In this document: positions 2,615-27,645 of the stretch, piece after piece | How positions within the stretch are numbered: the stretch's first letter is position 1 | Layout: each line of letters begins with the position of its first letter | Assembly: GCA_041688295.1 (NCBI GenBank) | Contig: JBDNIM010000101.1 | Span: 1 to 27,645 of the forward strand | Length of the DNA stretch: 27,645 nucleotides | Direction: 5' to 3' | DNA from: Bacteroidia bacterium | Lineage (GTDB): Bacteria > Bacteroidota > Bacteroidia > NS11-12g > UBA955 | The notes under the pieces: model-generated | What the model was told of the DNA's origin: nothing | What the model saw: the letters and a program-made list of their open reading frames with translations, nothing else | The model's database searches: none | Made by a program: the position numbers and the translations under genes

Positions 2615-2619
2615 GATTG

Positions 2620-2627
2620 CAAAAGTA
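2620..2627 (-). promoter_or_regulatory. Bacteroidota sigma-A -7 element for pheS
   Basis: TACTTTTG on the minus strand matches TAnnTTTG; 5 nt before the ATG at 2614. Confidence 0.6.
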
Positions 2628-2659
2628 ATTAAAATTAATAACTCTCTCAATCCACTTTA

Positions 2660-3026
2660 ATCACAAAGCAATAATAATAAATCTTTAAATAAAAATATAT
2701 ACTAATATTAATAGGGTGTTTATATCTTGATATCTTTAATAAAATTAATTTTTTTATATTCTATTTTATTTTTACCCATTAGTTATCAACCTTATTTTAC
2801 TTATGTTTATATGAGTTTTAATGTAGTTTTAATGTAGTTTTAAACATATTAACACCCATGTGAATTTGCTGTTACTTTATTATTAATTTTAGGTGAAAAT
2901 GTTAACAAGCAAAATATTTATCCCCCATTTAAGAAAGTTATTAGACACAATATATCACATTTATAGAGTACCATTCTTTTACATTAATTTTACCATACAC
3001 TGTTGTTAACTTTGTGTATAAAATCG
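2660..3026. other. Candidate oriC
   Basis: Very AT-rich noncoding region. One TTATNCACA match (TGTGTATAA 3013-3021), one 1-mismatch box (TTAGACACA 2941-2949), several 2-mismatch boxes (2783, 2859, 2892, 2900, 2918) and tandem AT-rich 11-mers; mnmG and parS-like sites are nearby. Confidence 0.45.
2814..2844 (+). repeat. Tandem 11-bp AT-rich repeat (AGTTTTAATGT x2 plus partial third copy)
   Basis: Read directly: 2814-2824, 2825-2835, then AGTTTTAAA at 2836-2844. Confidence 0.8.
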
Positions 3027-4340
3027 TTATTTTTTTATAATAATTTCTTCAATCCAATTAGGTTTTATGACTATTTTTTTGTATTGTAATGGATTGATTA
3101 ATAGATTTTTATGAAAGTTACTTAAATCATATATTTCTAATAAATATTCACCGTCATCTAAAATAATATTTATTTCCTTTTCTTTTATTACCTTGCTTAT
3201 TATTAGTTTATTTTTACTGTAAATAAGTACGAATAAATTCTTAAATTCTTCGTTTTTGATTAATATTTCACTGTTAATTTTTTTATAATTATTAGGTGAA
3301 AGGATGATATTAAAATTTAAGCTATCTAAAAAAGTAATATTTATAGTATCTTTTTTATTTTCACTGAAATAGGTGGTATATAATTGCGTCTTTAAATTCG
3401 TTTTAAAGCCATTTAAAACAATTTTGTTAAAATTATTATTTATAGTATAGTTAAATCCTATTTTCTCTTTATAAACCGCTATATTCTGTTCTAAATATTT
3501 TTTTACTAATTTTTTTATATCGTTTGAACTAAAATTTTCATTTAAAAAAATTGTTGAATCTTTATCAGTGTATAATAATTGTCTTTTATCTTTAAATATT
3601 AGAGGATTAAAATCACTTTTTTTGTATATGATATAATTACTATCTAAATTAGTTTTAGTTGTTGTATCGATAATTAATTGATGTGGAACTATAATTTCTT
3701 GTCCTTCAGATATAGTGTCAAAATTATAAATAGAATTTAATAATATTTTATGTTGCTTTTCATCTTCTGCAAAAATGTAATAGTTATATAATTCATTGGT
3801 TTTAAGACCTTGAATGGTGTTCTCACCATCATTTGTTAATTTAAGCTGATATTCTATTTTATTAAAGTTAAAACTATCTGGCTGTGTGCTATATAAGTTT
3901 ATATGAATATTCTTATATTCTGCTAAATTCTTGTAGCTAAACTTTATTTTACCGCTGTCAATGTCTTTACCTGTAGAAAACAAATAATTAAAATTAAATA
4001 AAATTCCTTCATTGTTGTCTTTTATTCCTTTATTTATATTTAATTCATAAGTTGTATTGTTTTGGAGACCACTGTCTAAAGTGATAACTAAACTTTTACC
4101 AATAACTTCTGATTTAATCGTTGTATGTTTAGGGTATATATTTATATTTTTTGAAGGTTCATTTAATTGAATGTATTCATCAAATTTTAAAATGATTCTT
4201 TTCTCATTAAAATTATTTCTATGTAAATTTGTTTTAACAATATTGGGCGACAATTCATCTTTTTTTCCACCAGATAGGTTGCCAATACTAGCGCAACTAT
4301 GTATTAATATTGCAGCGAAAAGTATAATAAATTTCTTCAT
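3027..4340 (-). CDS. Ig-like (Big_5-type) domain lipoprotein
   Basis: Lipobox IHSC followed by ASIGNLSGGKKDELSP and IILKFDEYIQL...NTTYELNINKGIKDNNEG...YLFSTG, the pattern of the Bacteroidota lipoprotein commonly found downstream of mnmG. Confidence 0.8.
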   Translation of the reverse strand: MKKFIILFAAILIHSCASIGNLSGGKKDELSPNIVKTNLHRNNFNEKRIILKFDEYIQLNEPSKNINIYPKHTTIKSEVIGKSLVITLDSGLQNNTTYELNINKGIKDNNEGILFNFNYLFSTGKDIDSGKIKFSYKNLAEYKNIHINLYSTQPDSFNFNKIEYQLKLTNDGENTIQGLKTNELYNYYIFAEDEKQHKILLNSIYNFDTISEGQEIIVPHQLIIDTTTKTNLDSNYIIYKKSDFNPLIFKDKRQLLYTDKDSTIFLNENFSSNDIKKLVKKYLEQNIAVYKEKIGFNYTINNNFNKIVLNGFKTNLKTQLYTTYFSENKKDTINITFLDSLNFNIILSPNNYKKINSEILIKNEEFKNLFVLIYSKNKLIISKVIKEKEINIILDDGEYLLEIYDLSNFHKNLLINPLQYKKIVIKPNWIEEIIIKK

Positions 4341-6637: not shown

Positions 6638-8397
6638 TATTTTAATACTGTTATTGTTCCTGTGAAAAGTAGTATTGTGCCGTTAAGCGCAACTACCCTG
6701 CATTTATAAACATATATGTCTGATACCACCAACTCGTCTTTTGTGTCTTTTCCATCCCAACCTTCAGATATATTGGAAATTTTTTTAACCTGTTCTCCCC
6801 AACGGTTAAATATCCAAAGTTCTGATTTGCTTGTGTCTATAAACTGCCCTTTTGGAATAAATGTAGTGTTAAATCCATTTATTTGTATAGCGTTTGGGAA
6901 ATATACTATTGGCTCGGCTGTTATACAAGATATGTTACTGTAGCTTGTGTCTTGTCTTATATATGGTGGAGTAGGACTGTTTTCTATTGCCCTTACACAA
7001 TAACAAATGTAGTTTTCATTTAGACCAAATACGCTAAAGTCTTGGTGGTTTGTTTCTCTATTGTTAACTGTTGTCAGTGTGTTCCACGGGGAACTATTGT
7101 TGAAATTAGGGCTGTTTCCTAGTAGAATTTGTTGATTTTGCGTGTTTTTAATAAAGTCGTCATACAAACTCCATTTTAAATCTTGATTGCCTGGGCTTAT
7201 CATAAGAACCTTTAAAAGTATTGTTGTTGATACTTGGCTAGTATCAAAAATAAAGTTGCATGGCCCTGTCGTTGTGAAATAGTAACTATATGAAAATCTG
7301 TCTGTTTTTACATCCGTGTCAATTCTATTGATAACTCCACCCGTTGTTGGAATGTTCTCAAGTAAAAAGTATGCCCCATTGTTTTCTGATTTGTAAACAT
7401 CAATGGCTTGAAGGGAAGTGCCAGTTTCTGTAATTAAAGTCAACTCAATGTTTTTGTTGTTTACAGTTGCTTTTGCAACATAAGAATTTGCGCTTGCAAT
7501 AATGTTACTGCTTGTTCTGCAACTTTCATTAGAACTTGATGTTGTGTTTTCTCCTGCCTTTTTTGCTCTGATAAAGAAGCAATAATTATCGCCAAAGGTT
7601 GTAAAGTTATAAGTAAACTGACTGATTTGCGGAACAACAGTGCCAACCAGCTGATAGTTGTTTGCGTTAATTTTTCTATAAATTTGATAGCTCTCTACCG
7701 CCCATCCTAAATAATTAGTCCAGCTTAAACTGATTGTTTTGTTGCATTCATTATATGTGTTGGTTAAGTGCATGGTTGTGTGTGCCTGGCTGATTAACGA
7801 AGCAATATTACAACTGTCGAAAGCGGCAATACTATATGAAATTGGCTGTGATGCAGGATCTCTTGAACCTATGTCTAAATAATTTATTTGTGCTGTTGTA
7901 TGTATAATTGTGTTTACACCAGTTACATTATAAATATAATAACCTTTATTGTCTTTGCTGTTGTTGGTTTTCCAACCAATTTGGGTTTTCTGTGTAGCTA
8001 AATTAACTGACACAGAGTCTATTAGAGAATTTTCGGGGGCCGTAATATCGATAATTAAAGTATCGCTGTAAATGCTGTCTGTTCCAGCACAATTGGTGTT
8101 ATAAACCAAATAAAACTCCCACGAACGAAGGTTTTTTAGTTTTAGTTGCACATTGTCTAACGCAAAGTCGTTCCATTTGCCCATAAAGTTATATAAGCCT
8201 AAAATATCATCTCGTCCATAAACGCTAAAGCTTGTAAAACTGCCGCAATTGTCTGTGGGTCTAAACCATAATAAATTTACAGTTGAGTCTGCTCTGTTTA
8301 GACAAACTCGCCTCATTTTCGGCCTGTTTTCAACAGAAAAAGCCGAAATGGTTATTAATAAAAATAATACAAAAACGATATGTTTTTTAAATATCAC
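6637..8397 (-). CDS. T9SS type-B sorting domain (gliding-motility-associated CTD) protein with FnIII-like repeats
   Basis: Signal peptide; beta-sandwich repeats (ISLSWTNYLGW...YQIYRK...YCFFIRA); C-terminal YFPNAIQINGFNTTF...IFNRWGEQV...WDGKD...YVY...GTITVLK. Confidence 0.88.
   Translation of the reverse strand: MIFKKHIVFVLFLLITISAFSVENRPKMRRVCLNRADSTVNLLWFRPTDNCGSFTSFSVYGRDDILGLYNFMGKWNDFALDNVQLKLKNLRSWEFYLVYNTNCAGTDSIYSDTLIIDITAPENSLIDSVSVNLATQKTQIGWKTNNSKDNKGYYIYNVTGVNTIIHTTAQINYLDIGSRDPASQPISYSIAAFDSCNIASLISQAHTTMHLTNTYNECNKTISLSWTNYLGWAVESYQIYRKINANNYQLVGTVVPQISQFTYNFTTFGDNYCFFIRAKKAGENTTSSSNESCRTSSNIIASANSYVAKATVNNKNIELTLITETGTSLQAIDVYKSENNGAYFLLENIPTTGGVINRIDTDVKTDRFSYSYYFTTTGPCNFIFDTSQVSTTILLKVLMISPGNQDLKWSLYDDFIKNTQNQQILLGNSPNFNNSSPWNTLTTVNNRETNHQDFSVFGLNENYICYCVRAIENSPTPPYIRQDTSYSNISCITAEPIVYFPNAIQINGFNTTFIPKGQFIDTSKSELWIFNRWGEQVKKISNISEGWDGKDTKDELVVSDIYVYKCRVVALNGTILLFTGTITVLK
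7080..7095. promoter_or_regulatory. parS-like site 3
   Basis: TGTTCCACGGGGAACT, 14/16 to consensus; inside the T9SS cargo gene. Confidence 0.7.
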
Positions 8398-9634
8398 CTG
8401 ATATACAGTATTTTAACGAATTAAAGTCGAAAAAATTGTTCATTATTTCAATTATTTCCTCTGATGTAATGGCATTGACGGCTGCAACATACCTGTCGTA
8501 ATAATCAGAGTCGCCCATTAAATCTAAATGGGTTTTTAGTCTTTCGGAAACATTAAAAGGGCCATCGAAGTTTCTCATCAATGCACCTAAAAGATAGTTT
8601 TTGGCGGTCTTTAATTCTTCTTCACCAACCAATTGTGTTTTCATTAGATTGATTTCGTTTATAATTTCTTGATAAACGGTTTCACTCAATGTGGAATTGC
8701 ATTCACAACTTATTTTTAAGATACTAAAATCCCGAAAGGGTGTGATGCTAGAGAAGATCCCGTAAGTCAAGCCCTTCTCTTCTCTAATGTTTTTCATTAA
8801 TCTTGAGCCAAAATAACCTCCTAGAATTAGGTTACTCAATTGCAGTTTAAAGTAATCTTTGTGTGATCTGTTAGGCAAGATTTTGCCAAATCTAATCGCA
8901 TTTTGTGTGGCATTGTCTTTTTTTATGTGCTCTTCATCCGCTGTTTTTTCAACGATTGTCTCTTTAAATTGAGCAATCTCAGTAGTTTCGGTTTTAAAAC
9001 CTAAGTGGTTTAATTCACTAATAATGTCGAAATTTTCTGGCCCTGCAAATATAAATGAATAGTTATCTAAACTATTTGAATGATAATTCTTTAGATCTAT
9101 TGAACTAATGCTTTTAATTAAGTCTTCCGTAGATGACAAACTGAAAGGGTGCGTTGTTCCTAAAATCAAATGATTGATACCCCTACTCGCCAAAAAACTA
9201 GGTTTTTCTAAATTGATAGCTCTTTCGCTTAGTTTTTTGTTTTTGTATATTTCTAGTTCCTTTTCGTTGTAAATACAACCGTCTATTGCCTCTTTAACAA
9301 GCTTAACAATAGAAGAAAACTGATGGTTTGCGCCATAAATACTTATACATGCATTGTAGTAGTCGCAGGTTTTAAAAACAAATCCGCCCAAGGTGTCAAT
9401 TTCTTCAGATATTTTATGTGCGGTTTTAGTCGCTGTTCCGCTCAATATTAAATCTAAGCCATAAATGGCATCAAATTTATTATGATAGGTTGCAAATCCA
9501 GCATTAGGGAAAATGATTTCTAACTTAAAAACCCCTTCGTTTTGCTTAATATGATAGACATTTCCATTCGATTCAGGAAATTTAGTGCTAAGCTGTTGAA
9601 TTGTTTTTATATCGGGAGCAACTTTTCTGTTCAT
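8387..9634 (-). CDS. M16 family peptidase-like subunit, non-catalytic
   Basis: ILGGYFGSRLMKNIREEKGLTYGI, SGTATKTAHKISEEIDTLGG; no HXXEH motif. Confidence 0.88.
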   Translation of the reverse strand: MNRKVAPDIKTIQQLSTKFPESNGNVYHIKQNEGVFKLEIIFPNAGFATYHNKFDAIYGLDLILSGTATKTAHKISEEIDTLGGFVFKTCDYYNACISIYGANHQFSSIVKLVKEAIDGCIYNEKELEIYKNKKLSERAINLEKPSFLASRGINHLILGTTHPFSLSSTEDLIKSISSIDLKNYHSNSLDNYSFIFAGPENFDIISELNHLGFKTETTEIAQFKETIVEKTADEEHIKKDNATQNAIRFGKILPNRSHKDYFKLQLSNLILGGYFGSRLMKNIREEKGLTYGIFSSITPFRDFSILKISCECNSTLSETVYQEIINEINLMKTQLVGEEELKTAKNYLLGALMRNFDGPFNVSERLKTHLDLMGDSDYYDRYVAAVNAITSEEIIEIMNNFFDFNSLKYCISGDI

Positions 9635-10869
9635 TTCTTTGGTTGGTATTTAAGTACAGTATAGTTTTTAGTGGATAAATAGGTTTTACATACCCGCAAT
9701 ACATCAGCTTCGGTTATTTTTTGTATTTCGTCTATTTCAGTGTTTATTTTATTGGTGTCGCCTAACAAATGTGAATAGCAAAGTCCCATTGCTTTGTTTA
9801 AGACAGATGTTTTGCTAAACAAGTTGCCTGTTATAGCTTTATTTTTTACTTTTTCTAACTCGTTACTTTGCAATCCTTCCTTCATTATTTGAAAAAATAT
9901 TTCTAAAACCGATTGTTCCGCTTCATCAAATTCTATGTTTTCGTTTAGCTTGCCTTCCACAACCAATAGACCAGGGTCAATATCTCCAGAAATATAAGCA
10001 GAGACATGAGAAAATACGCCTTTTTGTTTTACCAAAACCTCAGTGAAACGAGAAGATTCTGTGCCAGAGAGCATATCCGTTAAAACATCCAATGCATAAT
10101 AATCTGTATGGTTTCTTGCCACTGTGTCAAAGGCCATAAATATTGCTCTTTGTGGAACATCAGCTTCTATCGTTAGTTCTTTTCTTATAAATTTTGGCGT
10201 TTCAAGCGTGTATTTATTGCTGTTAACCGGCCCAGCAGGAATATCACCAAACCATTTTATAACAAGCGTTTTAGCCGCCTCAAAGTCAATATATCCGGCC
10301 AAACTGATAATAGCGTTAGATGGGTTGTAAAATTTATCGAAAAAAGCTTCAACGTCCTGAAGTTTAGCATTCTCAATATGGCTAATTTCCTTGCCAATAG
10401 TGGCCCATTGGTAAGGGTGTTTTTCGTAAGCAAGAGGTCTTAATTTTAGCCATGCATCGCCATAGGGTTGGTTCAAATACCGTTGTTTAAACTCTTCGAT
10501 TACCACACCTTTTTGAACCTTCAAAGCCTTTTCATTAAAATCTAAACGCAACATTCTGTCGCTCTCCAACCACAGCGCTGTTTCAATGTTTTCTGCCGGC
10601 AGGGTGATGTAATAATTTGTAATGTCATTGCTAGTAAAAGCATTGTTTTCGCCACTCGCCATTTGCAAGGGTGTGTCGAAGGAAGGGATATTTACCGAGC
10701 CGCCAAACATCAAATGTTCAAACAAATGCGCAAAACCCGTTTGTTCAGGGTTTTCGTCTCTTGCTCCCACATTATATAGAATATTGCAAACGCAAAGCGT
10801 TGTGTTTTTATCCTCATTATGAATAAGCGTTAAACCATTGGGCAGCTTATAGGTGTTAAATGAAATCAC
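9631..10869 (-). CDS. M16 (pitrilysin/insulinase) family zinc peptidase, catalytic subunit
   Basis: YNVGARDE, GFAHLFEHLMFGGS (HXXEH), NAFTSNDITNYY, LWLESDRM, VVIEEFKQR; GTG start; 4-nt overlap with the partner gene. Confidence 0.93.
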   Translation of the reverse strand: MISFNTYKLPNGLTLIHNEDKNTTLCVCNILYNVGARDENPEQTGFAHLFEHLMFGGSVNIPSFDTPLQMASGENNAFTSNDITNYYITLPAENIETALWLESDRMLRLDFNEKALKVQKGVVIEEFKQRYLNQPYGDAWLKLRPLAYEKHPYQWATIGKEISHIENAKLQDVEAFFDKFYNPSNAIISLAGYIDFEAAKTLVIKWFGDIPAGPVNSNKYTLETPKFIRKELTIEADVPQRAIFMAFDTVARNHTDYYALDVLTDMLSGTESSRFTEVLVKQKGVFSHVSAYISGDIDPGLLVVEGKLNENIEFDEAEQSVLEIFFQIMKEGLQSNELEKVKNKAITGNLFSKTSVLNKAMGLCYSHLLGDTNKINTEIDEIQKITEADVLRVCKTYLSTKNYTVLKYQPKK

Positions 10870-10873
10870 CCTG

Positions 10874-10881
10874 CAAATATA
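10874..10881 (-). promoter_or_regulatory. -7 element for the M16...mnmG operon
   Basis: TATATTTG on the minus strand, 4 nt before the GTG at 10869. Confidence 0.6.
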
Positions 10882-10978
10882 ATGAAATTAGTTAAGTTTA
10901 TTTTTTTGCAAATGTGGGTCATTTGGAGGATGAACTCGATACAATAAAGTCGGAAGCTGGAATTTTGGGGAGTAAACC

Positions 10979-11077
10979 TTTTCTGTTGATGGGATACCTT
11001 GTTCTGTAAAAGGCAATCAGCGCTCTTTTATCGGAAAACAGCAATCTTTATGGCTTAAAATATTTTCTGTTGATGGG
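10979..11077 (+). repeat. Pair of 15-bp direct repeats TTTTCTGTTGATGGG
   Basis: Exact copies at 10979-10993 and 11063-11077 (84-bp period) in noncoding DNA. Confidence 0.75.
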
Positions 11078-11260
11078 GTAAATTCTGTCTTTGTTTGTTA
11101 AGAGAAACATGTGCTAAAAACTTGAATCGAAAAACTAAAATTTCATTAACTAAGAATTGTTTTAGTAACACTAAATTTTGGCAATTTATTGCAAATTATC
11201 CCCTGCTTTGGTTTTATCATCATCAGCAAAATTAATTTATAAGAAAAAAAGAATTTCCAT

Positions 11261-11809
11261 TTATTGTAAAATAATAAATATCTTTTCTTGTAGTTTTTTT
11301 ATCACTTTTTTCTCTGAGATATAAGTGTTACTGGTTTTATTCGTATAAACAATTATTGTCCAATCTTCATTATCAAACAGTTTATTAAATTCTATTAATG
11401 AAATTTTTGTATAAAATCTGGAATTAAATTGTTTGTTTCTTTTTTCATTGAATAACAATCTAATGTCTTTCCTTAATATTTTATGTGTTGTATTTGCAAA
11501 GCGTAAACTATTAATACTTTTGAATAAAATGGAACTATGCAAAGATAAATTTACAATTACAGAATCCTTTACAATATTTTTATATCTAAATGTAAAATCT
11601 AAATGTATTTCTTCTCTATTTAGGGTGTTATAAAAAATCATTGGTTTTATAAAATACTGAGTACCTCCTTCCCCTAAATAAAATGTCTCAAACAAATTCT
11701 TGCCAGATTTTACACCTGAAGGCTTTACAGATGGGCATCCTGTTAGAAAAACAAATAACACTAAACCAATAAATATTTTTGAAATATAATTATTACTTGA
11801 TATTTTCAT
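11261..11809 (-). CDS. Putative lipoprotein of unknown function
   Basis: Hydrophobic stretch plus LTGC lipobox (IFIGLVLFVFLTGCPSVKP); very AT-rich. Confidence 0.75.
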   Translation of the reverse strand: MKISSNNYISKIFIGLVLFVFLTGCPSVKPSGVKSGKNLFETFYLGEGGTQYFIKPMIFYNTLNREEIHLDFTFRYKNIVKDSVIVNLSLHSSILFKSINSLRFANTTHKILRKDIRLLFNEKRNKQFNSRFYTKISLIEFNKLFDNEDWTIIVYTNKTSNTYISEKKVIKKLQEKIFIILQ

Positions 11810-11812
11810 TTT

Positions 11813-12037
11813 TCAATTTTGATTAAATCTATTTGAAAGTTCCGACCGATTAAAAAGAGAATCTGCGATTTTTTTAGAATTAGATATTGCTAGAATATAA
11901 ATTAAGTTTTTATCAAATACCTTTGAATATTCTGAAATATAAGTAGTGTCATTATTATGTGTTTTATAAAAATAAGAAAGAGAGTCCGTATGCAATTCTA
12001 ATGTATTATTCGACTGTTGAAAAATTTGAAACATCAC
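11813..12037 (-). pseudogene. Probable 3' gene remnant (74 aa)
   Basis: Ends 3 nt before the lipoprotein start; its start codons lie inside a hairpin and there is an in-frame TAG shortly upstream; no signal peptide or motif. Confidence 0.4.
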
Positions 12038-12065
12038 TCGCTTTCGCTTGCATCTTGCGAGTGAT
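12033..12065. repeat. GC-rich inverted repeat (REP-like hairpin)
   Basis: ATCACTCGC-N15-GCGAGTGAT, a perfect 9-bp stem in AT-rich context. Confidence 0.6.
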
Positions 12066-12176
12066 AAAACTTGCCACTTTAGGTATTCCTAAATAAAAAA
12101 CCCACCTCATTTCAAACAAGGAAACCAAGCCCATTATTTCTCTAAATAAATAACATAAAATTTTAATAAGAAGTGT

Positions 12177-12184
12177 TATTTTTG
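12177..12184 (+). promoter_or_regulatory. -7 element for fabG-tatC-rpiB
   Basis: TATTTTTG, 23 nt before the ATG at 12208. Confidence 0.6.
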
Positions 12185-12207
12185 CCTAGAAAAGTAACCC
12201 CTAAAAT

Positions 12208-12951
12208 ATGTTAAACGGAAAAACAGCTTTAATAACTGGCGCAAGCCGAGGAATAGGTAAAGGAATAGCAGAAACATTTGCAAAAAATGGTGCCAATATC
12301 GCCTTTACATTTGCGAGTTCGGTAGAGAAAGCACGCGCTTTTGAGCAAGAATTAACCGATAAATATGGTGTTAAAGCCAAAGGCTATCAAAGCGATGCGT
12401 CTAACTTTAATGCTGCACACGAATTGGTGGATTTAATCATTGCCGACTTCGGAACGATTGATATTTTGATTAACAATGCTGGCATTACGAAAGATAATTT
12501 ATTAATGCGAATGACAGAGGAGCAATGGGACGATGTAATTAACACCAACCTGAAATCTGCTTTCAATCTGACCAAGGCTTGTTTAAAAACATTTCTTAAA
12601 AACAGAGCGGGAAGCATCATAAACATGACCTCTGTTGTGGGTGTGAACGGCAATGCAGGCCAGTCTAACTACAGCGCAAGCAAAGCGGGTATGATTGGGT
12701 TTACAAAATCGATGGCGAAGGAATTGGGCAGCCGAAATGTGCGTTGCAATGCCATTGCCCCAGGTTTTATTGAAACCGAAATGACCGCAACCCTAAACGA
12801 AGAAATTAAAAAACAATGGATTGACACCATTCCTTTGAAAAGGGGCGGTAGCACAGAGGATGTGGCCAATGTTTGTTTATTTTTAGCCAGCGATATGAGC
12901 GCATATATTACAGGCCAAACCATCAGTGTATGTGGCGGTATGTTAATGTAA
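12208..12951 (+). CDS. fabG: 3-oxoacyl-ACP reductase FabG
   Basis: TGASRGIG, INNAGITKDNLLMRM, GNAGQSNYSASKAG (YxxxK), NAIAPGFIETEMT, YITGQTISVCGGM. Confidence 0.95.
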   Translation: MLNGKTALITGASRGIGKGIAETFAKNGANIAFTFASSVEKARAFEQELTDKYGVKAKGYQSDASNFNAAHELVDLIIADFGTIDILINNAGITKDNLLMRMTEEQWDDVINTNLKSAFNLTKACLKTFLKNRAGSIINMTSVVGVNGNAGQSNYSASKAGMIGFTKSMAKELGSRNVRCNAIAPGFIETEMTATLNEEIKKQWIDTIPLKRGGSTEDVANVCLFLASDMSAYITGQTISVCGGMLM

Positions 12952-12955
12952 TATT

Positions 12956-13792
12956 TTGTCACTAGACCAACAACATACAGATAAAAGCGAGGACAAGGAA
13001 ATGTCCTTCTTCGACCATATTGACGAACTAAGAAAGTATTTGATGCGAAGCGCTTATGCGCTGGTTATCTTTTCTGCGATTGCGTTTATTTACATGGATT
13101 TTATATTCCATACAATTATCATTGGCCCTTTAAGCAATAAGTTTTTTACCTATCAATGGGTGTGTAATTTTGCAACAAAATATTTCCATACGGACAAATA
13201 TTGTTTTAAAGATTTAAAATACAGCCTTTTGAACACGGAAATGGCAGGGCAGTTTATGCTATCCTTTAAATTGTCCTTTATTGTCGGAATAATTGCAAGT
13301 ATGCCTTTTATACTTTGGCAAGTATGGTTGTTCCTTAAGCCTGCCCTATCTGAAAAAGAAAGAAAAAATACCCGTGGGTTTGTTTTTTACACCACTATTT
13401 TGTTTGCCTTGGGTATTATGTTCGGCTATTTTGTTCTGTGTCCTATTTCTGTAAACTTTTTCTTTAATTATTCTTTGAGCTCTACCATCGAAAATAAAAT
13501 AAGTATTCAAAATATAGTTGGTTTTATGAGTCTATTGGTAATAGGCACGGGTTTAATTTTTGAATTGCCAATATTAATGTATTTCTTGGCTCGCATTGGG
13601 TTAATATCTAGTGCCTTTCTAAACAAATACAGGAAATATGCTTTTGTTATTATCTTAATAGTGGCTGCTCTTGTAACGCCTCCCGATGTTGTTAGCCAAA
13701 TAATTTTAACCATTCCGCTTTATTCGCTTTTTGAATTGGGCATATTAATTACCAAAAGAGTGGAGAAAAACCGACTTTTATCAACCCCATAA
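12956..13792 (+). CDS. tatC: Twin-arginine translocase subunit TatC
   Basis: EMSFFDHIDELR, WLFLKPALSEKE, FELP, YRKYAFVIILIVAALVTPPDVVSQ, LYSLFELGI; about six TM segments; TTG start. Confidence 0.96.
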   Translation: MSLDQQHTDKSEDKEMSFFDHIDELRKYLMRSAYALVIFSAIAFIYMDFIFHTIIIGPLSNKFFTYQWVCNFATKYFHTDKYCFKDLKYSLLNTEMAGQFMLSFKLSFIVGIIASMPFILWQVWLFLKPALSEKERKNTRGFVFYTTILFALGIMFGYFVLCPISVNFFFNYSLSSTIENKISIQNIVGFMSLLVIGTGLIFELPILMYFLARIGLISSAFLNKYRKYAFVIILIVAALVTPPDVVSQIILTIPLYSLFELGILITKRVEKNRLLSTP

Positions 13793-13796
13793 AAAA

Positions 13797-14234
13797 ATGA
13801 AAACAATACATATTGGTTGCGACCATGCCGGTTTCGATTTGAAACAAGAATTGATTAAGTGGCTAGAAACAAATGGTTATAAAACACAAGATTATGGCAC
13901 ATTTTCTAAAGATTCTATGGATTATCCGGACACTGTGCACCCTTTGGCAACAGCTGTTGAAAAAGAAGAAAATGGCACAGGCATTTTAATTTGTGGCAGT
14001 GGAAATGGCGTTTGTTTAACAGCCAATAAGCACGAAGGCATTAGAGCAGCTTTGTGTTGGTTGCCCAATTTGGGGGCTTTAGCAAAACAACATAACAATG
14101 CCAATATCCTGTGTTTGCCTGCTCGTTTCGTGAGCCAAGAAACAGCTATACAAATTGTAGAAGCCTATTTGAATGCCGAATTTGAAGGTGGCAGACATCA
14201 AAGTAGAATTGACAAGATTTGCGGGTTTAATTAA
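13797..14234 (+). CDS. rpiB: Ribose-5-phosphate isomerase B
   Basis: IGCDHAGF, SMDYPD, GILICGSGNG, ANKHEGIRAAL, HNNANILCL, FEGGRHQSRIDKI. Confidence 0.95.
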   Translation: MKTIHIGCDHAGFDLKQELIKWLETNGYKTQDYGTFSKDSMDYPDTVHPLATAVEKEENGTGILICGSGNGVCLTANKHEGIRAALCWLPNLGALAKQHNNANILCLPARFVSQETAIQIVEAYLNAEFEGGRHQSRIDKICGFN

Positions 14235-14241
14235 ATTTTAT

Positions 14242-14249
14242 TACTTTTG
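14242..14249 (+). promoter_or_regulatory. -7 element for the C10 protease gene
   Basis: TACTTTTG, 21 nt before the ATG at 14271. Confidence 0.55.
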
Positions 14250-14270
14250 TAACAATTAAATGATATTGTT

Positions 14271-16901
14271 ATGAAAAAAAATCTACTATTTGTTTTAGCA
14301 TTAATTGCTTGTTTCAATCTATTTTCTAAATCTGTAAGCCAAGAAAAAGCGCAAGCTTTGGCAACGGGATTTTTTAAAAACTACTTTCCTTCGGTGTCCA
14401 AAGCCAATTGCTATTTAGCTTACCAATCGCAGAGCAATGCTTACAGCAACAGCAACAGCAGCACTCCCGAAAACTATTTTTATGTGTTTAATTATCAAAA
14501 CAAAGGCTTTGTTATCTTGAGTGCCGATGATGTTTTTACACCTATTATTGCTTATTCTTTAGAGAATGGGTTCACGGCCGACAACATGGCACAGCATGTA
14601 CAAAAATGGTTAGAGGGTTATAAAGAAGAAATTAGAGCAGGCATAAAAAATGGACTTGAAAGCACTATGGCCATCAATAATGAATGGAAAAACTTAGAAA
14701 ATGGCTTGCTTATTGGTGCTGAGAAAATTGGAAACACCAATCCTAAAAGGGGCAGCGTTTCGCCCTTGTTGACCACAAAATGGAACCAATCACCAAATTA
14801 TAATGCTTTGTGTCCTTATGACAATGGAGCAAGGCAACTAACTGTTAGCGGATGCGTTGCCACGGCCGTAACTCAAGTAATGAAATATTGGAACTATCCT
14901 GCAAAAGGAACGGGCAATTATTCTTACAATCATAGCAACTATGGCACGCTTTCTGCAAACTTTGCCGCAACAACTTACAATTGGTCTAACATGCCCAACA
15001 CGGTGAACAGCGGCAACTTTCAATCTGTCGCTCTGTTAACCTATCAAGTTGGGGTAAGTGTAGATATGAACTATGGAATTGCTTCCACGGGAGGCAGCGG
15101 TGCTTATGTTATTAGCAGCAAAAGCCCTGTAACCAATTGTGCTGAATATGCGCTCAAAACTTACTTCGGCTATAAAACCACTTTAAAAGGGGTGGAGAGA
15201 GCAAGCTACAATGCCACCAATTGGATAAATTTGCTGAAAGCAGAATTAGACGCTTCTCGTCCTATTATTTATGCCGGTTTTGGCTCGGGTGGTGGCCATT
15301 GTTTTGTTGCCGATGGCTACGACAACAATAATTTTTTCCATTTCAACTGGGGATGGGGTGGTAATTCCGATGGTTATTTCAGTATTAATGCCCTTAATCC
15401 CGGTTCTTTAGGTGCGGGCGGAGGCAGCGGAGGTTTTAATAGCGGACACCAAGCCATTATTGGTGTTGAGCCAAAGGAAGGTGGAACGAGCGCTTCTACT
15501 ATGGATATGCGTTTATATTCAGAAATCATATTGAATCAATCGCCTGTAAATTATAACACCAATTTCTCTGTGAACGTTAGTTTGGCTAATTTTGGTACAA
15601 CAAGTCAGCAAAATTTTCAAGGCGATTTTGCAGCTGCTATCTTTAATTCAAGCAATCAGTTTGTTTCTTTTGTTGAAACCAAAGCAATTAGTTTGCTAGA
15701 ATTTAATTTTTTTAATACCTACACATTTAGCACACAAGCATTGAGCAATTTGGTTCCGGGAACCTATAAAATGGGAATGTATTACAGAATAAAGAATACA
15801 ACAGATTGGAAAGCTTTTTCAAACAATGGTGGTTATTCCAACTTTCAATCTTTTGATGTAAAAGGATTGAATATAAATCCCCTAAAACTATATGCAGCCA
15901 TTTCAACAACGCCTTCTCCCATTGTGCAAAACAATAGTTTTGTGATTTCTTTTGACATAGCAAACTTTGATAATCGGGATTTTAATGGCGATGTGTCTGT
16001 CGATTTGCACAGTTCAGATGGAAAACACTTGGGAGAGTTAGGTATTAAAACAGGACTTTCTCTTCAAGCAGGCTATCATTTCACAAATGGCTTGCAATAC
16101 ACAATTAGCAGTGGCTTGGCAGATGAGCCAGGCAATTATCTGTTGTTTGTTTACTCTAAACCCTCAGGTGGAATATGGGATTATGTAGGAACCGGCAATT
16201 TTGCTAACCCTGTAAGCATTCTGGTGGTTGCGCCTAGCCTAAATCCAGATATTTATGAAAATAACAACACTGTTTCCACGGCCTATACCTTACCGGTTAG
16301 CTATGTTAACAACAAAGCGACAGTAAAAACAACAGGTTCTAATTGTCATATTGGCACCGACTACGATTTTTATAAAATTAACTTTCCCGTAGGTACAAAT
16401 TATGCTTTCTCTGCCAAACTTAACGATGCTTTAGTTTCTGACGATGGAAAAACATACACCCTAGATGCTGTGTTTTCTTATTCTTTAGACAATGGCGCTT
16501 CGTTTTCAGATGTGTTCGACACCCGAATAGGCGAAACTTTGATTTCAAAAGGGGGCAGCAATGTTATTTTTAAAGTGTCGCCCTATTTCACTGGCGGTAT
16601 TGGTACCTATTTGTTAGACATAAATATAGATTTTACCCAATCTGTGTCCGATCTGGCGTTTCAAAACCTAATAAAACTATATCCAAACCCAGCCAAAGAC
16701 TTTGTTACCGTTCAGTTTGATGCTATTAAGGTTAATTCCATTACCGTTATGGATGTTCAAGGCAGGATTATTGAAACCTACAAAAATCTAGACAAAGAAA
16801 ACTTGCTGCTGATAGAACAAAACAATCTGGGCGCGGGTATTTATTTCTTGAATATAGAAACAGACAAGGGCCTAGTTGTTAAAAAATTGGTGTTCAAATA
16901 A
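14271..16901 (+). CDS. C10 (streptopain/SpeB-family) cysteine protease with prodomain, Ig-like/PPC-like domains and T9SS type-A CTD
   Basis: Prodomain YFYVFN...GFVILSADD..PIIAYS; TTKWNQS, SGCVATAVTQVM (Cys), GGHCFVADGY (His), HFNWGWGG; DIYENNN...DYDFYK; C-terminal LYPNPAKD...GIYFL...VVKKLVFK. Confidence 0.93.
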   Translation: MKKNLLFVLALIACFNLFSKSVSQEKAQALATGFFKNYFPSVSKANCYLAYQSQSNAYSNSNSSTPENYFYVFNYQNKGFVILSADDVFTPIIAYSLENGFTADNMAQHVQKWLEGYKEEIRAGIKNGLESTMAINNEWKNLENGLLIGAEKIGNTNPKRGSVSPLLTTKWNQSPNYNALCPYDNGARQLTVSGCVATAVTQVMKYWNYPAKGTGNYSYNHSNYGTLSANFAATTYNWSNMPNTVNSGNFQSVALLTYQVGVSVDMNYGIASTGGSGAYVISSKSPVTNCAEYALKTYFGYKTTLKGVERASYNATNWINLLKAELDASRPIIYAGFGSGGGHCFVADGYDNNNFFHFNWGWGGNSDGYFSINALNPGSLGAGGGSGGFNSGHQAIIGVEPKEGGTSASTMDMRLYSEIILNQSPVNYNTNFSVNVSLANFGTTSQQNFQGDFAAAIFNSSNQFVSFVETKAISLLEFNFFNTYTFSTQALSNLVPGTYKMGMYYRIKNTTDWKAFSNNGGYSNFQSFDVKGLNINPLKLYAAISTTPSPIVQNNSFVISFDIANFDNRDFNGDVSVDLHSSDGKHLGELGIKTGLSLQAGYHFTNGLQYTISSGLADEPGNYLLFVYSKPSGGIWDYVGTGNFANPVSILVVAPSLNPDIYENNNTVSTAYTLPVSYVNNKATVKTTGSNCHIGTDYDFYKINFPVGTNYAFSAKLNDALVSDDGKTYTLDAVFSYSLDNGASFSDVFDTRIGETLISKGGSNVIFKVSPYFTGGIGTYLLDINIDFTQSVSDLAFQNLIKLYPNPAKDFVTVQFDAIKVNSITVMDVQGRIIETYKNLDKENLLLIEQNNLGAGIYFLNIETDKGLVVKKLVFK

Positions 16902-16902
16902 A

Positions 16903-17418
16903 ATGAAATATTGGTTTTTAATAAGTTTGCTTGTCTTTAGTGTTGCTTGCAAAAGCAAAAAGAAAGCGAAAGACAAAGAAATGGAAAATACGGTGTTTGT
17001 GCCAAACAATACCCCTGGCGCCAAAGCCATTGTTTATAAAACAATTAAAAACTACGACAAGTTTGTGGCTATTATTATGAGCCAAGATGGCAAAGAAATC
17101 ATAAGTTATCCCGATCCAAAGGATGTGGCCTCCAATGGCGATTTGATTGCGCTGCCGACAGTGTTAAAACAAGGCTATTTGCTAGACAACAGAGGAATTG
17201 GCCCGCAAGTGGCTTTCCTAAAAATCAGCTACAAAGACTTTGGCAAGCTAATGACACCACCTTCTTTAGAAGATATGCAAGCCATGATTTTAGAAAAAAG
17301 TCCTTTGCTAGAAATGTATGACTGCGGCAATCGAGACAGCATCAAAAACCTTACCCAAACCCTAAATTCTTTGATAGAAAAAAAACAATTGGACAAGGTT
17401 TGCAAAAAATTGTATTGA
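16903..17418 (+). CDS. Lipoprotein of unknown function, co-transcribed with the protease
   Basis: Start at MKYWFLISLLVFSVAC (lipobox), 1 nt after the protease stop; GYLLDNRGIG, PLLEMYDCG. Confidence 0.8.
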   Translation: MKYWFLISLLVFSVACKSKKKAKDKEMENTVFVPNNTPGAKAIVYKTIKNYDKFVAIIMSQDGKEIISYPDPKDVASNGDLIALPTVLKQGYLLDNRGIGPQVAFLKISYKDFGKLMTPPSLEDMQAMILEKSPLLEMYDCGNRDSIKNLTQTLNSLIEKKQLDKVCKKLY

Positions 17419-17437
17419 AAACGAACAAAGCCACCTA

Positions 17438-18571
17438 TTATTTTGATTCTGATAGATTCTGGAATAAATGTTTTTTAATCGAATCTTTTAATGCAGCAGA
17501 TAAAAATGTAGGCACAGCATTTCCTATTTGCAAGTTTTTATCGCCTCTTGAACCATAGAAAATATAATGGTCTGGAAAACATTGAATTCTAGCCCCTTCT
17601 CTTGTTGTCAGTGGCCTTGGTGCTATTGGATGGATACACCTCGATGATGAAGGGGTACTTAAATTTCTAGTAATTGTTGTACTAGGTCTGTTCCACCACA
17701 ATCTACAATAAGTATTTGCAAAACCACTTTTAGGTCTCATTTCTTCTGGCAAATCTTTTGGAGTTCCACCATCTGGAAGGTTTTCCATTATTTTGATTAA
17801 ACTACCATTATTGTTGGGGGAATTATGGTCCATTAATTTATTTGGAGCATTTTCTCTCATTAATTTCTGAAATTCATTAACAGGTTCAGTAGCATAAACA
17901 AAACATTCTTCGCTACTTTTGATAAAAGCAAGATCACCAATAGCTTCTCTTAATGTTAGATAAGGTTTTAATTCTTGATTTAAAAGATTAATGCCATCTT
18001 CAGGATTATATCTTGTTGGTTCAGGATACATATATTTAGCATCTAATTTTGTTCCTATAATTATTACTCTTTCTCTTATTTGAGGTGCCCCAAAATCTGC
18101 TGAATTTAAAACTTTATAATCAACCTTATAACCTAATGATTTAAACAACAAAATAATTGACTTTAATAATTCTCCTTGTTGCATAGAAATAAGACCTTTT
18201 ACATTTTCAAATAAAAACATTTTTGGATCTAATTCTTTGAGAACTCTAAAATATTCTTGAAATAGTTTTCCTTTTGGATCGTCAATTAACCTTTTTCCAA
18301 CAGTTGAATATGCTTGACAAGGAGGCCCTCCTATAATTAAATCTATGTCTCCTTTTTTAACACCAAAATCTTTTTTTAAATCTTCAAGTCCAAAATCTTT
18401 TATGTCTTTGCAATAAACTTTAACAGATGGATGATTTAACTCATAAGCTTTTGCCATATTAATCAAAATTTCATTAGCAGCTAAAATTTCAAAATTTTCA
18501 TCTTGAACAAACCCATAACTTAAACCGCCAACTCCTGCAAATAAATCAATAGTTTTGAATTTTTTAAGCAT
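17438..18571 (-). CDS. DNA (cytosine-5)-methyltransferase, Type II R-M
   Basis: IDLFAGVGG (I), GGPPCQ (IV), FENV (VI), QIRER (VIII), REGARIQCFP (IX), QIGNAVP (X). TRD RPKSGFANTY...WW..P..TITRNLSTPSSSRCIHP is recalled as matching H. pylori ACGT methyltransferases (not verified). Confidence 0.95.
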   Translation of the reverse strand: MLKKFKTIDLFAGVGGLSYGFVQDENFEILAANEILINMAKAYELNHPSVKVYCKDIKDFGLEDLKKDFGVKKGDIDLIIGGPPCQAYSTVGKRLIDDPKGKLFQEYFRVLKELDPKMFLFENVKGLISMQQGELLKSIILLFKSLGYKVDYKVLNSADFGAPQIRERVIIIGTKLDAKYMYPEPTRYNPEDGINLLNQELKPYLTLREAIGDLAFIKSSEECFVYATEPVNEFQKLMRENAPNKLMDHNSPNNNGSLIKIMENLPDGGTPKDLPEEMRPKSGFANTYCRLWWNRPSTTITRNLSTPSSSRCIHPIAPRPLTTREGARIQCFPDHYIFYGSRGDKNLQIGNAVPTFLSAALKDSIKKHLFQNLSESK

Positions 18572-18582
18572 AATCTTATATT

Positions 18583-19365
18583 TTAAATTTTAAATAATTT
18601 TTTATAGTTAGGTGGGAATTCCGTTAATTTCCAAACAAAATAATTTTGATCTATATTAAAAACAGTTTGCCCTTCCAATTGTTGTCTTGTTATCCAATTT
18701 AGACTGTCATCATCAATATTATCTATTTTTACAAAAGCAACCTGCCCATTGTATAAATCAAAATGAACAACTAATGAAGGAATCTTCTCTTCTCTTTTAA
18801 TTCTTTTTGCTTCTAAAACTTTGTGTTGTTTAATGTCATTTATTCCTTGAAATCCAGATTGAACTTCAATTCTAATCTTTTTGTCATTTTTTAATTTAAT
18901 TAGCAAATCTGCCTTTGGTGATTTTTTAAAAGTTTCAATATTTACTAAATCATCATCTCCAATTAAATCAATATTTTCAATATCAACATCAAAAACTTTG
19001 CTCAATGCACTTAAAAAATATGAAGACATTACAAATCCACGCATCCAAGAAAAATAAACTTCTTCAGGTCTTCTACCTAGATTATTTAGTCTCGAAATGA
19101 TGTTGTGTGTTTTTAATTTCTCAAATACTGTTTTTATATTTTCATCACAAAATATCCCTAAATCTTCAACTTTTATTTCATCCACGACCAAATCATTTAT
19201 TTTTGCTACTATTTCAAGTAGTCTGTAGTTTAATAATTCTATATAATTGTAATCAATTGTTGGAATTATATCTTTCGCACCCAAAAAAGCCTTAAGTTTA
19301 TTCTGATTAGTAAAGCCCAGTTGTTCTCTATATTCCTTGAAGTATTTTGTATCAATCATTGTCAT
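18583..19365 (-). CDS. Type II restriction endonuclease (recalled as HpyCH4IV-like)
   Basis: Directly upstream of the MTase (11-nt gap); PD-(D/E)xK-like KADL...IEVQSG...DIK; RLNNLGRRPEEVYFSWMRG. Start ATG 19365 or 19359 (track uses TTG 19380). Confidence 0.8.
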   Translation of the reverse strand: MTMIDTKYFKEYREQLGFTNQNKLKAFLGAKDIIPTIDYNYIELLNYRLLEIVAKINDLVVDEIKVEDLGIFCDENIKTVFEKLKTHNIISRLNNLGRRPEEVYFSWMRGFVMSSYFLSALSKVFDVDIENIDLIGDDDLVNIETFKKSPKADLLIKLKNDKKIRIEVQSGFQGINDIKQHKVLEAKRIKREEKIPSLVVHFDLYNGQVAFVKIDNIDDDSLNWITRQQLEGQTVFNIDQNYFVWKLTEFPPNYKKLFKI

Positions 19366-19422
19366 ATTTTTAGTTATCAAAAATCATTCGCTAACAGTAG
19401 TCTCATTTTTTAATTTCAACTA

Positions 19423-25593: not shown

Positions 25594-25601
25594 TACCTTT
25601 G
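25594..25601 (+). promoter_or_regulatory. -7 element for the DUF488 operon
   Basis: TACCTTTG, 4 nt before the ATG at 25606. Confidence 0.55.
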
Positions 25602-25605
25602 TGAA

Positions 25606-26490
25606 ATGTTTTATAGAAGAAAAATAATATTGGCATTATTACAGATTTTTGATGGAAATATTGATAAAATAAGCTTGCAGAAACTACTGTTTTTATTCTC
25701 CAAACGACAAAGTAAAGCTGAATATGATTTTATTCCATACCGTTTTGGTTGCTATTCTTATTCTGCAAACGCTGACTTAACTGCTATGGTTAATAAAGAA
25801 TTATTGACAGAAACAAAAAGTCATTTTATTAGTATTGAAAAAATCGATTACTTTAAAGTTTTAAAAGAAAATGACAAAAAAATTATGATAGAAATTAAAG
25901 CTCTTTATGGAAAAATGAATGCAGATGCTTTAATGAAGCACACCTATCTAAATTTTCCTTATTGGGCAATCAATAGCGTTAAGGCAAGCGAAATATTAAC
26001 AGTAGATCAATTTGAGAAAGTCAATAACAGTAGACCCAAAACCAATGAAATTAGTTTGTTTACTATTGGATATGAAGGTATTTCTTTGGAAGAGTATTTA
26101 AATAGATTGCTTAAAAATGATGTGAAAATATTAGTTGATGTTAGAAATAATGCTTTAAGTATGAAATATGGTTTTAGCAAAAGTCTATTGCAACGATTCT
26201 GTAATAGCTTGGGAATTGAATATTTGCATTTCCACGAAGTAGGCATACAATCTGACCAAAGACAAGAATTAAATAATCAAAATGATTACGATAAATTATT
26301 TTCTATTTATTGTGAAACTAATCTAAAAAAAACAACTGATTCTCAGTTGAAAATTTTAGATTTATTGCAAAAACACAAACGAATAGCTTTAACTTGCTTT
26401 GAATCTAATATTTGTCAATGCCATAGAAAACATTTGGCCGAAGCAATTGAAAATTTGCCAAACTTTAAATATCAAGTAAAACATATTTAA
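25606..26490 (+). CDS. DUF488 family protein with an N-terminal SocA-like winged-helix domain
   Basis: aa 151-294: LFTIGYEG, LVDVR, SMKYGFSK, GIEYLH, ALTCFE...CHR. aa 1-125: LQKLLF...YDFIPYRFGCYS...YLNFPYW. Confidence 0.85.
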   Translation: MFYRRKIILALLQIFDGNIDKISLQKLLFLFSKRQSKAEYDFIPYRFGCYSYSANADLTAMVNKELLTETKSHFISIEKIDYFKVLKENDKKIMIEIKALYGKMNADALMKHTYLNFPYWAINSVKASEILTVDQFEKVNNSRPKTNEISLFTIGYEGISLEEYLNRLLKNDVKILVDVRNNALSMKYGFSKSLLQRFCNSLGIEYLHFHEVGIQSDQRQELNNQNDYDKLFSIYCETNLKKTTDSQLKILDLLQKHKRIALTCFESNICQCHRKHLAEAIENLPNFKYQVKHI

Positions 26491-26492
26491 AT

Positions 26493-27317
26493 ATGGCAAA
26501 GACAAAAGTATTGATTACTGTAAAAACTTACCCTGCCATTTCCGGGAAATATGACGAATTGGTATGTACCGCTGGTTTTTTGGAGGATGGAACATGGATT
26601 CGAATTTACCCTATTCAATTTCGAAAAAAATCTTTTGAAGAGCAATATAAAAAATATGATTGGATTGAAATCGACCTTGTAAAAAACAAAAGAGATTTTA
26701 GAAAAGAAAGTTTTAGACCAGTTTCATACGATACTGAAATTAAAATTTTAGACCATTTAGATACAAAAAGTAATTGGTTGCTGCGAAAAGAAATTGTGTT
26801 CAAAAACGAAATCTATAATGATATTCAAAAACTAGTTTTAGAAGCAAAGAACAGAGAAATCATGACTTCTCTTGCGGTATTCAAACCAACCGAAATAAGC
26901 AATTTTACGATTGAACAAGTAGAAAGAGAATGGAACAAAAAGAGGCTTGAAAAGCTAAAACATGATAGAAGTAGTAATTTATTTGCACAAGAAGAAGAGG
27001 ACTTGTTTGAAGTGATTAGAAAACTTCCTTATAAATTTTCTTATGTTCTACGAGACTGTAATGGAAAACAAAGTAAAATGATGATTGAAGATTGGGAAAT
27101 AGGTCAGCTTTATTGGAACTGTCTTGCTAAACACGAAGGAAACGAAGTAAAAGCAGTTGAAGATGTTAGGAAAAAATATTTTGATGACTTCGCAAAAACA
27201 AAAGACTTACATTTGTTTTTAGGAACATCGCAACTCCACCATTTAACGGGCAAAAATCCATTTATGATTATTGGAACTTTTCATCCGAAAAAAGAAAATC
27301 AACAAACTTTGTTTTAA
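26493..27317 (+). CDS. Uncharacterised DUF488-partner protein, putative OB-fold nucleic-acid-binding
   Basis: 2 nt after the DUF488 stop; VLITVKTYP...LVCTAG...WIRIYP...KKYDWI...RKESFRP; PYKFSY...MIEDWEIG...HLFLGT; ends QQTLF. Fold is inferred from recalled family resemblance. Confidence 0.75.
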   Translation: MAKTKVLITVKTYPAISGKYDELVCTAGFLEDGTWIRIYPIQFRKKSFEEQYKKYDWIEIDLVKNKRDFRKESFRPVSYDTEIKILDHLDTKSNWLLRKEIVFKNEIYNDIQKLVLEAKNREIMTSLAVFKPTEISNFTIEQVEREWNKKRLEKLKHDRSSNLFAQEEEDLFEVIRKLPYKFSYVLRDCNGKQSKMMIEDWEIGQLYWNCLAKHEGNEVKAVEDVRKKYFDDFAKTKDLHLFLGTSQLHHLTGKNPFMIIGTFHPKKENQQTLF

Positions 27318-27543: not shown

Positions 27544-27645
27544 ATGAAACAAATAATTATTATATTATGTGTTATCTCATTGTTATCCTCTTGTAGAAAA
27601 GAATGGTGGAACCCAAAAAAGGTAGCAGAACCAACATTACCTGGC
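27544..27645 (+). CDS. Lipoprotein (5' part, runs off the window)
   Basis: Manual translation MKQIIIILCVISLLSSCRKEWWNPKKVAEPTLPG; LSSC lipobox. Confidence 0.7.
   Translation, partial: MKQIIIILCVISLLSSCRKEWWNPKKVAEPTLPG

Follow-up and report, generated by a model that had tools for sequence, protein, structure and literature searches.

Near the end of a 27,645-nucleotide contig from a Bacteroidia bacterium (GTDB lineage Bacteroidota; Bacteroidia; NS11-12g; UBA955; GCA_041688295.1, JBDNIM010000101.1), two adjacent genes form a cassette that is essentially certainly a copy of the phage defence candidate PDC-M19. The contig was analysed in its entirety and is referred to as the window; the assembly from which it comes is 86% complete and consists of 521 contigs. 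Gene A (25606-26490, plus strand) encodes a protein of 294 aa in which a domain resembling the C-terminal domain of DarG is fused to DUF488, and gene B (26493-27317, plus strand) encodes a tandem OB-fold protein of 274 aa. Our best overall explanation, to which we give about even credence, is that this PDC-M19 copy is a likely conflict module in which B is a DNA binder tethered to the sliding clamp and A is its partner.

The assignment follows from two full-length profile matches. Residues 1-294 of A align to positions 1-294 of the PADLOC model PDC-M19A (PDLC04505) with an E value of 4.5e-125, and B matches the PDC-M19B model (PDLC04508) over its full length with an E value of 3.5e-125. An earlier note on this DNA, made from the letters alone, had proposed the pair as an uncharacterised system without a name; with both proteins matching at E values of about 1e-125, that part of the proposal falls away, a match to an already named system being one of the outcomes that the note had itself listed as refuting it. 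PDC-M19 is cassette CAS_00089 (FAM_02799>>FAM_02993), entered as "assign as candidate" in Table S8 of Payne et al. (bioRxiv 10.1101/2024.01.29.577857). It belongs to a set of 145 "guilt-by-embedding" phage defence candidates, called untested by the authors, which are genes that lie within BREX, DISARM or Type I restriction-modification (R-M) loci (bioRxiv 10.1101/2024.01.29.577857). The order and orientation of the genes, A and then B, are the same here, and we see no structural difference, so the pair is a member of PDC-M19; unlike the source candidates, however, the window copy lies outside any BREX, DISARM or R-M locus. A additionally matches PHROG 14939 (E 4.8e-64), and searches of the PDB, with profiles as well, returned no sequence relative for either protein.

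Predicted architecture of proteins A and B

The structure model of A is confident (mean predicted local distance difference test score, pLDDT, 93.1) and divides the protein into two parts. Residues 1-141 (25606-26028, plus strand) are predicted to include a winged helix and to fold like the C-terminal, DarT-binding domain of DarG. When compared with DarG in the DarT-DarG complex (7yk3_D), this domain aligns over 139 residues with a VIA Z of 11.9, the next match of the domain being at Z 7.9, and Foldseek pairs it with the DarG C-terminal domain at an E value of 5.6e-4 and a probability of 1.0. Weak profile matches to the C-terminal part of DarG were also obtained with the PADLOC DarG model (E 0.0025) and with NCBIfam antitoxin_DarG (E 0.014). 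The C-terminal domain of DarG reportedly binds and inhibits the toxin, a result attributed to Deep et al. in 2023.

Like DarG, A is a two-part protein with an enzymatic domain and a domain of the DarG C-terminal fold. It differs from the DarTG system in that the order of the domains is inverted, DUF488 stands in place of the macrodomain, and the partner is a dual-OB protein instead of an ADP-ribosyltransferase. No macrodomain was found in A, for which Pfam shows DUF488 only and residues 147-294 are modelled with a phosphatase-like fold, and DarT (PF14487) has no match in the window's genome at its 86% completeness. A link between DUF488 and DarT-DarG had been put forward in the earlier note as one of genomic neighbourhood. 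The link does exist, but it takes the form of the DarG C-terminal fold within the N-terminal domain of A, which differs from an association between loci.

The second part of A, residues 147-294 (26044-26487, plus strand), is the DUF488 domain, detected with Pfam PF04343 at an E value of 4.7e-23 (82.5 bits against a gathering cut-off of 22.2); the related model DUF488-N3a (PF22751) stays below its cut-off, with 20.5 bits against 27. Three motifs on the plus strand, DVR (D178-V-R180, 26137-26145), CFE (C264-F-E266, 26395-26403) and CHR (C272-H-R274, 26419-26427), are unchanged across 43 A homologues with 50-71% identity, and TIGYEG is likewise an invariant motif. The model of this domain matches laforin, PRL, KAP and a Sulfolobus PTP at VIA Z 8-9 and also CobF/CbiL-type domains at Z of about 10-10.5, which supports a predicted Rossmannoid fold of the Cys-phosphatase or rhodanese-phosphatase type. 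Weak matches of A to glutaredoxins were taken as chance.

The structure model of B is likewise confident (pLDDT 94.6) and contains two OB folds, with OB1 at about residues 1-90, a helical linker, and OB2 at about residues 125-265. OB1 matches Teb1, PriB, RPA and SSB at Z 7.5-8.6, with TEBP also among the matches, and the two OB folds jointly can be aligned with HIN domains (164-170 residues, Z 7.7-8.1). The predicted fold is thus one that B has in common with the tandem-OB DNA binders (RPA70, Teb1, TEBP-alpha, PriB/SSB and HIN-200). However, B has no sequence relationship to these proteins, and it has invariant polar residues of its own (R37, D68, R70, D200 and W201 in the B family) as well as a tail with a clamp motif. 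No Pfam family was matched by B and 81 of its relatives. These results agree with what had been read from the sequence before, i.e., an intact D-V-R and C-x-E...C-H-R constellation in DUF488, a place for this domain in the rhodanese/Cys-phosphatase superfamily (fold matches at Z 8-10), and an OB-fold-like partner.

B ends in QQTLF (27300-27314, plus strand), which fits the bacterial beta-clamp docking pattern of Q-x-x-L-F at the carboxyl end. Such docking motifs are characteristically carried by polymerases and by proteins of mismatch repair and other repair. The tail is LF in 78 of 100 unique B homologues (29-90% identity), and 72 of these 78 have Q at position -5, while positions -3, -4 and -6 vary. 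Among 82 diverse B representatives the motif is found in 34, versus 3.5 in shuffled tails, and 68 of 91 bacterial homologues end in Q-x-x-L-F-COOH. None of 55 homologues of the B protein from a Sulfolobus plasmid ends in LF (the few of them with a named source are archaeal); instead, 27 of the 55 carry L-[FL]-[DNSE]-[FIYW] followed by 4-6 residues, and a few have canonical PCNA-interacting protein (PIP) boxes. This switch of the tail from QxxLF to a PIP-like form runs parallel to the change from beta clamp to PCNA and is, at the level of motifs, our best evidence that B may dock on the sliding clamp. A second candidate site is found in an internal loop of B (residues 160-172, 26970-27008, plus strand), which reads SSNLF...EEDLF and has a pLDDT of 69 for the block 161-170. 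In 102 B homologues this site is mostly Q-x-N-L-F, for example QLNLF (24), QGNLF (22) and QMNLF (8), and SSNLF is found in 16.

The named fold nearest to B is DuOB (PF22557, "Dual OB-containing domain"), a distant relative, with an AFDB E value of 4.8e-9. When the profile of B was compared with that of nine DuOB proteins by hhalign, a probability of 89.5% and an E value of 2e-6 were obtained over 32 columns, including a shared N-terminal VC-x-AG...W-I-R. With HMMER, PF22557 gave no match at E values up to 10 in the window's genome and matched 0 of 82 B family members. The DuOB proteins correspond to PADLOC PDC-M45A, and one or two DUF488 genes flank eight of the nine. PDC-M45 (DuOB plus DUF488-N3a/N3i) thus resembles PDC-M19 in having a dual-OB protein genetically linked to DUF488, and the combination of dual OB and DUF488 therefore recurs, with two separate entries in the catalogue. 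The two nevertheless differ, as PDC-M45 has one or two separate short DUF488 genes without a DarG-like domain, and the nine DuOB proteins examined lack the Q-x-x-L-F tail found in B. Most DuOB genes in the Bacteroidota loci (L107-L114) have two tandem DUF488 genes at their flank, an arrangement that fits the "active" and "inactive" DUF488-N3 subclades of Pfam. For a DUF488 clade, Burroughs and Aravind are said to have predicted DNA-end processing in 2023.

Linkage, distribution and mobility

In all 80 species loci A immediately precedes B, and only a few nucleotides separate the two genes. A conserved third gene or wider synteny was also considered and rejected, as every other gene family is confined to at most 4 of the 80 loci. 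Each of the two proteins has about 7,000 relatives among 90%-identity clusters, and the B family comprises 1,980 representatives at 50% identity. The distribution is patchy, with B present in 22 of 401 sampled Bacteroidota species and in 20 of 180 genera. When 32 other species of the window's own genus were searched, a single one proved to have B, and there a DNA identity of 70% spans the two genes only.

B is also found on mobile elements, including conjugative plasmids of Rhizobium, Burkholderia and Pseudomonas, other plasmids of Streptomyces, Calothrix and Sulfolobus, and temperate Gordonia CZ1 phages, where it lies next to a repressor/immunity gene and an integrase. On the proteobacterial and actinobacterial plasmids examined, as well as in the Gordonia phages, B faces a short convergent DUF488 gene, and the 3' ends of the two genes overlap. 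The link between B and DUF488 therefore persists even where the genes are ordered or oriented differently. On the Sulfolobus plasmid, a search beside B revealed no DUF488 gene. In Gordonia phage Eviarto, gene 44 (L002:4024-4974), which is annotated as "immunity repressor" and lies directly upstream of the B homologue, has no PADLOC match. It was rejected as an A partner, the DUF488 partner being gene 42 on the opposite strand.

On an integrative element of Elizabethkingia, the PDC-M19 pair is bordered by an integrase gene on one side and by ardA, an anti-restriction gene, on the other. In Elizabethkingia anophelis this element (L085-L093, about 6800-18300) comprises the integrase, ardA, PDC-M19, small open reading frames (ORFs), an ImmA/HTH pair and a Multi_ubiq-ThiF-BubE cluster, and one variant (L092) has an MmeI-like R-M system and an AAA_15 ATPase instead. 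Neither integrase nor ardA is a regular neighbour in Bacteroidota, as a tblastn search, which was not exhaustive, detected a related integrase within 10 kb in 3 of 80 loci and ardA in none.

Loci with one broken gene were also found. B is broken and A intact in seven loci, and the reverse, a broken A with an intact B, is seen in two or three; this asymmetry in decay is suggestive only. Two genomes of the window's genus (G015 and G020; loci L128 and L129) share an identical in-frame TAG within B while A is intact, which represents either a common inactivation or a read-through site.

Further observations concern the neighbours of individual copies. In the same-genus relative with the 70% identical pair (G442), a homologue of Olokun OloB (L126:10862-12577, minus strand; PADLOC E 9.5e-120) is encoded two genes upstream of PDC-M19, and between them lies a gene of 207 aa that resembles the UDG superfamily (weak, E 2e-4). 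One PDC-M19 copy has a HigB-toxin gene and a small partner directly downstream (L094:9206-9860) in an otherwise housekeeping context. The nearest ORF upstream of A is on the cassette strand in 63 of 72 loci (L005-L084) and the nearest ORF downstream in 44 of 70, which is an orientation bias.

Operon layout and surroundings in the window

A Bacteroidota -7 promoter box, TAccTTTG (TAnnTTTG), is located at 25594-25601 on the plus strand, 4 nt ahead of the ATG of A. The box recurs at the identical 4-nt spacing in 54 of 76 homologous loci versus 3.4% of 60-nt background windows. Its position before A and its recurrence in homologous loci show that the cassette carries its own promoter, and from this spacing the A-B transcript is probably leaderless or near-leaderless. 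The two genes are separated by 2 nt (TAA of A, "at", ATG of B), and no intrinsic terminator was found when looked for downstream of B. The non-coding flank upstream of the pair measures 248 nt up to the longest ORF start (25357), or about 428 nt if the secreted neighbour starts at its signal-peptide Met (residue 61), and the downstream flank measures 227 nt up to a lipoprotein-like ATG at 27545.

Upstream of the pair, the neighbouring genes encode a DUF7619 protein of 1362 aa and a GT87 glycosyltransferase. The downstream neighbour is a DUF6252 lipoprotein-like gene, which is followed on a second contig (C89) by genes for an ABC ATPase, sucC, tsaC and mnmA. The last 80 nt of the window (27563-27642) are 99% identical to the end of C89 (6542-6621), and the two contigs therefore probably join. 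C89 holds housekeeping genes only, and the remainder of the window holds housekeeping genes and genes for secreted proteins of the type IX secretion system (T9SS) type.

A C5 cytosine methyltransferase gene (17438-18571, minus strand; PADLOC MTase_II, E 1.8e-101) lies 6.2 kb upstream of A. The adjoining ORF of 264 aa, for which Pfam, PHROG and PADLOC gave no match, probably encodes the restriction component that goes with the methyltransferase. Both genes (17438-19380, minus strand) lie in a stretch of low GC content, about 0.26. Elsewhere in the window, at 2500-4000, the GC content drops to about 0.21, which overlaps an intergenic gap. The local description given in the earlier note was accurate in these respects: a two-gene operon with its own -7 element and a 2-nt gap, flanks of about 430 and 230 bp, insertion among secreted-protein genes (together with housekeeping genes), and a probable R-M islet about 6 kb away.

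Possible roles: conflict module, repair factor or addiction module

We consider it slightly better than an even bet that the pair is a mobile conflict module, either a defence system or one similar to a toxin-antitoxin system. The mechanism we propose for it is more tentative and, in our judgement, less likely than not. The two OB folds of B would bind single-stranded or primer-template DNA, and B would dock on the sliding clamp (DnaN) via the C-terminal Q-x-x-L-F, while the Q-x-N-L-F of the internal loop could provide a second docking site in most homologues. Docking would place B at replication forks or on clamp-loaded DNA, and unrestrained B might there hinder any replication that depends on the clamp, an invading phage's included. 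The N-terminal domain of A, with its DarG-C-terminal-like fold, would hold B or fill its DNA groove, and the DUF488 cysteine enzyme would work at these sites too, stripping nucleic-acid ends or adducts of a phosphate-linked group. Family membership, the strict linkage of A and B, mobility, the predicted folds and the conservation of the motifs come from the data, whereas binding of DNA and clamp, contact between A and B, the substrate of the enzyme and an anti-phage effect are inferred. The more frequent loss of B beside an intact A than of A beside an intact B was counted in favour of the explanation, as were the linkage, the spread on mobile elements, the second dual-OB and DUF488 system, and the fold and tail-motif matches. 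The action on abasic or ADP-ribosylated ends proposed in the earlier note is conjecture and gained no support here.

SocAB of Caulobacter offers a parallel for a protein that works on the beta sliding clamp under the control of a partner, its clamp-binding toxin SocB being paired with the Panacea-domain antitoxin SocA (PMC8832971). A scores only 12.1 bits with SocA_Panacea (PF13274) against a cut-off of 25.7 (E 0.6), and a Panacea identity of its N-terminal domain is not supported. In its most far-reaching form, which we find doubtful, the proposal would make PDC-M19 the first defence or toxin-antitoxin-type system with an effector that works through the sliding clamp. B would then plug or tether the clamp via one or two docking motifs, PIP-like in archaea, and A would be a DarG-like antidote in which a DUF488 cysteine phosphatase replaces the macrodomain, with a new reversal chemistry.

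Several findings weigh against a clamp-directed conflict module. The first is the genomic setting, as the copy in the window is flanked by housekeeping and secreted-protein genes and is not in a defence island. The scan with defence models covered the 132 nearest ORFs in 39 loci, which form the first half of the neighbour set (the second half being 133 ORFs), and most of these 132 ORFs are housekeeping genes. About ten match defence models, including type IIG R-M, Cas12a/Cas1, PD-Lambda-5, PDC-S05 and CapP, so the enrichment of defence genes in the neighbourhood is modest. Strong defence-island enrichment was not seen among the nearest neighbours. The second concerns the proteins. The OB matches at Z 7-8.6 are in a range compatible with a mere common fold, clamp binding by B is predicted solely from a short linear motif, and the internal motif in the window's own B is the degenerate SSNLF. 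Additionally, the DUF488 partners in Proteobacteria, Actinobacteria and Gordonia phages are convergent and have no DarG-like domain, which means that contact between the N-terminal domain of A and B cannot be a core feature common to all forms of the system. The two or three loci with a broken A and an intact B suggest either that B, if a toxin, lacks strong lethality or that the breaks are assembly errors. Finally, the literature searched makes no mention of PDC-M19 beyond its source and holds no experimental or functional study of this pair, in keeping with the earlier note, whose author knew of none.

A less probable but still credible explanation is that the pair is an accessory module for DNA repair or end processing and not for immunity. 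B would recognise gapped or damaged DNA at clamp-loaded sites and recruit DUF488 to clear a blocking phosphate-linked group, which would help the host or the mobile element to survive DNA damage. The conserved docking motif, being of a kind typical of polymerases and repair proteins, the RPA/PriB/SSB-like fold of B and the phosphatase fold of A with its intact Cys site all suit such a role, as do the mostly housekeeping neighbours and the weakly matched UDG-superfamily-like gene beside the pair in the same-genus relative, and the DNA-end processing reportedly predicted for the DUF488 clade points the same way. However, core repair genes are rarely so patchy (5% of species), so mobile, or found beside prophage immunity genes, and it is hard to see what a DarG-antitoxin-like domain would do in a plain repair factor. 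PDC-M19 was moreover picked up embedded in BREX, DISARM and R-M loci.

It is unlikely that the pair serves instead in the establishment of mobile elements or in anti-defence. The pair would then shield the DNA of an entering or replicating element, for example with the antitoxin-like domain neutralising DarT-type or other DNA-modifying defences, DUF488 reversing the adduct, and the single-strand binder targeting both to replicating DNA. The position between integrase and ardA in Elizabethkingia and the presence on conjugative plasmids and in temperate phages would be expected of such a function, and the N-terminal domain of A resembles the DarT-binding part of DarG. DUF488 is, to our knowledge, not known to have ADP-ribose hydrolase activity, which speaks against it. 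Furthermore, the pair is chromosomal and among housekeeping genes here and in most loci, the non-exhaustive search placed a related integrase within 10 kb in only three of the 80 Bacteroidota loci and ardA in none, and the phage copies sit with lysogeny genes and not with early lytic genes. In favour of it, two reports describe orphan DarG-like antitoxins that phages carry as counter-defence (PMC11825919, PMC11481870).

Least probable of all is a plain toxin-antitoxin addiction module without an anti-phage role, in which B would be a replication-blocking toxin, A its antidote, and persistence would be ensured by post-segregational killing: the tight coupling of the genes, the mobility of the cassette with its own promoter, the DarG-antitoxin-like domain in A, the SocB/SocA precedent (PMC8832971), the more frequent decay of B than of A and the HigB toxin gene adjoining the pair in one context could all be read this way, but the convergent layout and the DUF488 without an antitoxin-like domain in other phyla are unlike a classical operonic system, loci with a broken A and an intact B exist, and a conserved DUF488 catalytic site would be superfluous in a simple binding antidote.

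The pair matters because PDC-M19 is widespread: about 5% of the Bacteroidota species sampled have it, and it extends to Proteobacteria, Actinobacteria and Cyanobacteria as well as to plasmids of archaea and temperate phages. What has been a bare catalogue entry now comes with leads, namely the tail of B and the clamp, a possible contact between A and B via the DarG-like domain, and the active-site cysteines of DUF488. If the link to the clamp holds true, PDC-M19 would be a common mobile cassette tied to the replication machinery of bacteria and archaea, and it would provide the first functional context for the large DUF488 family.

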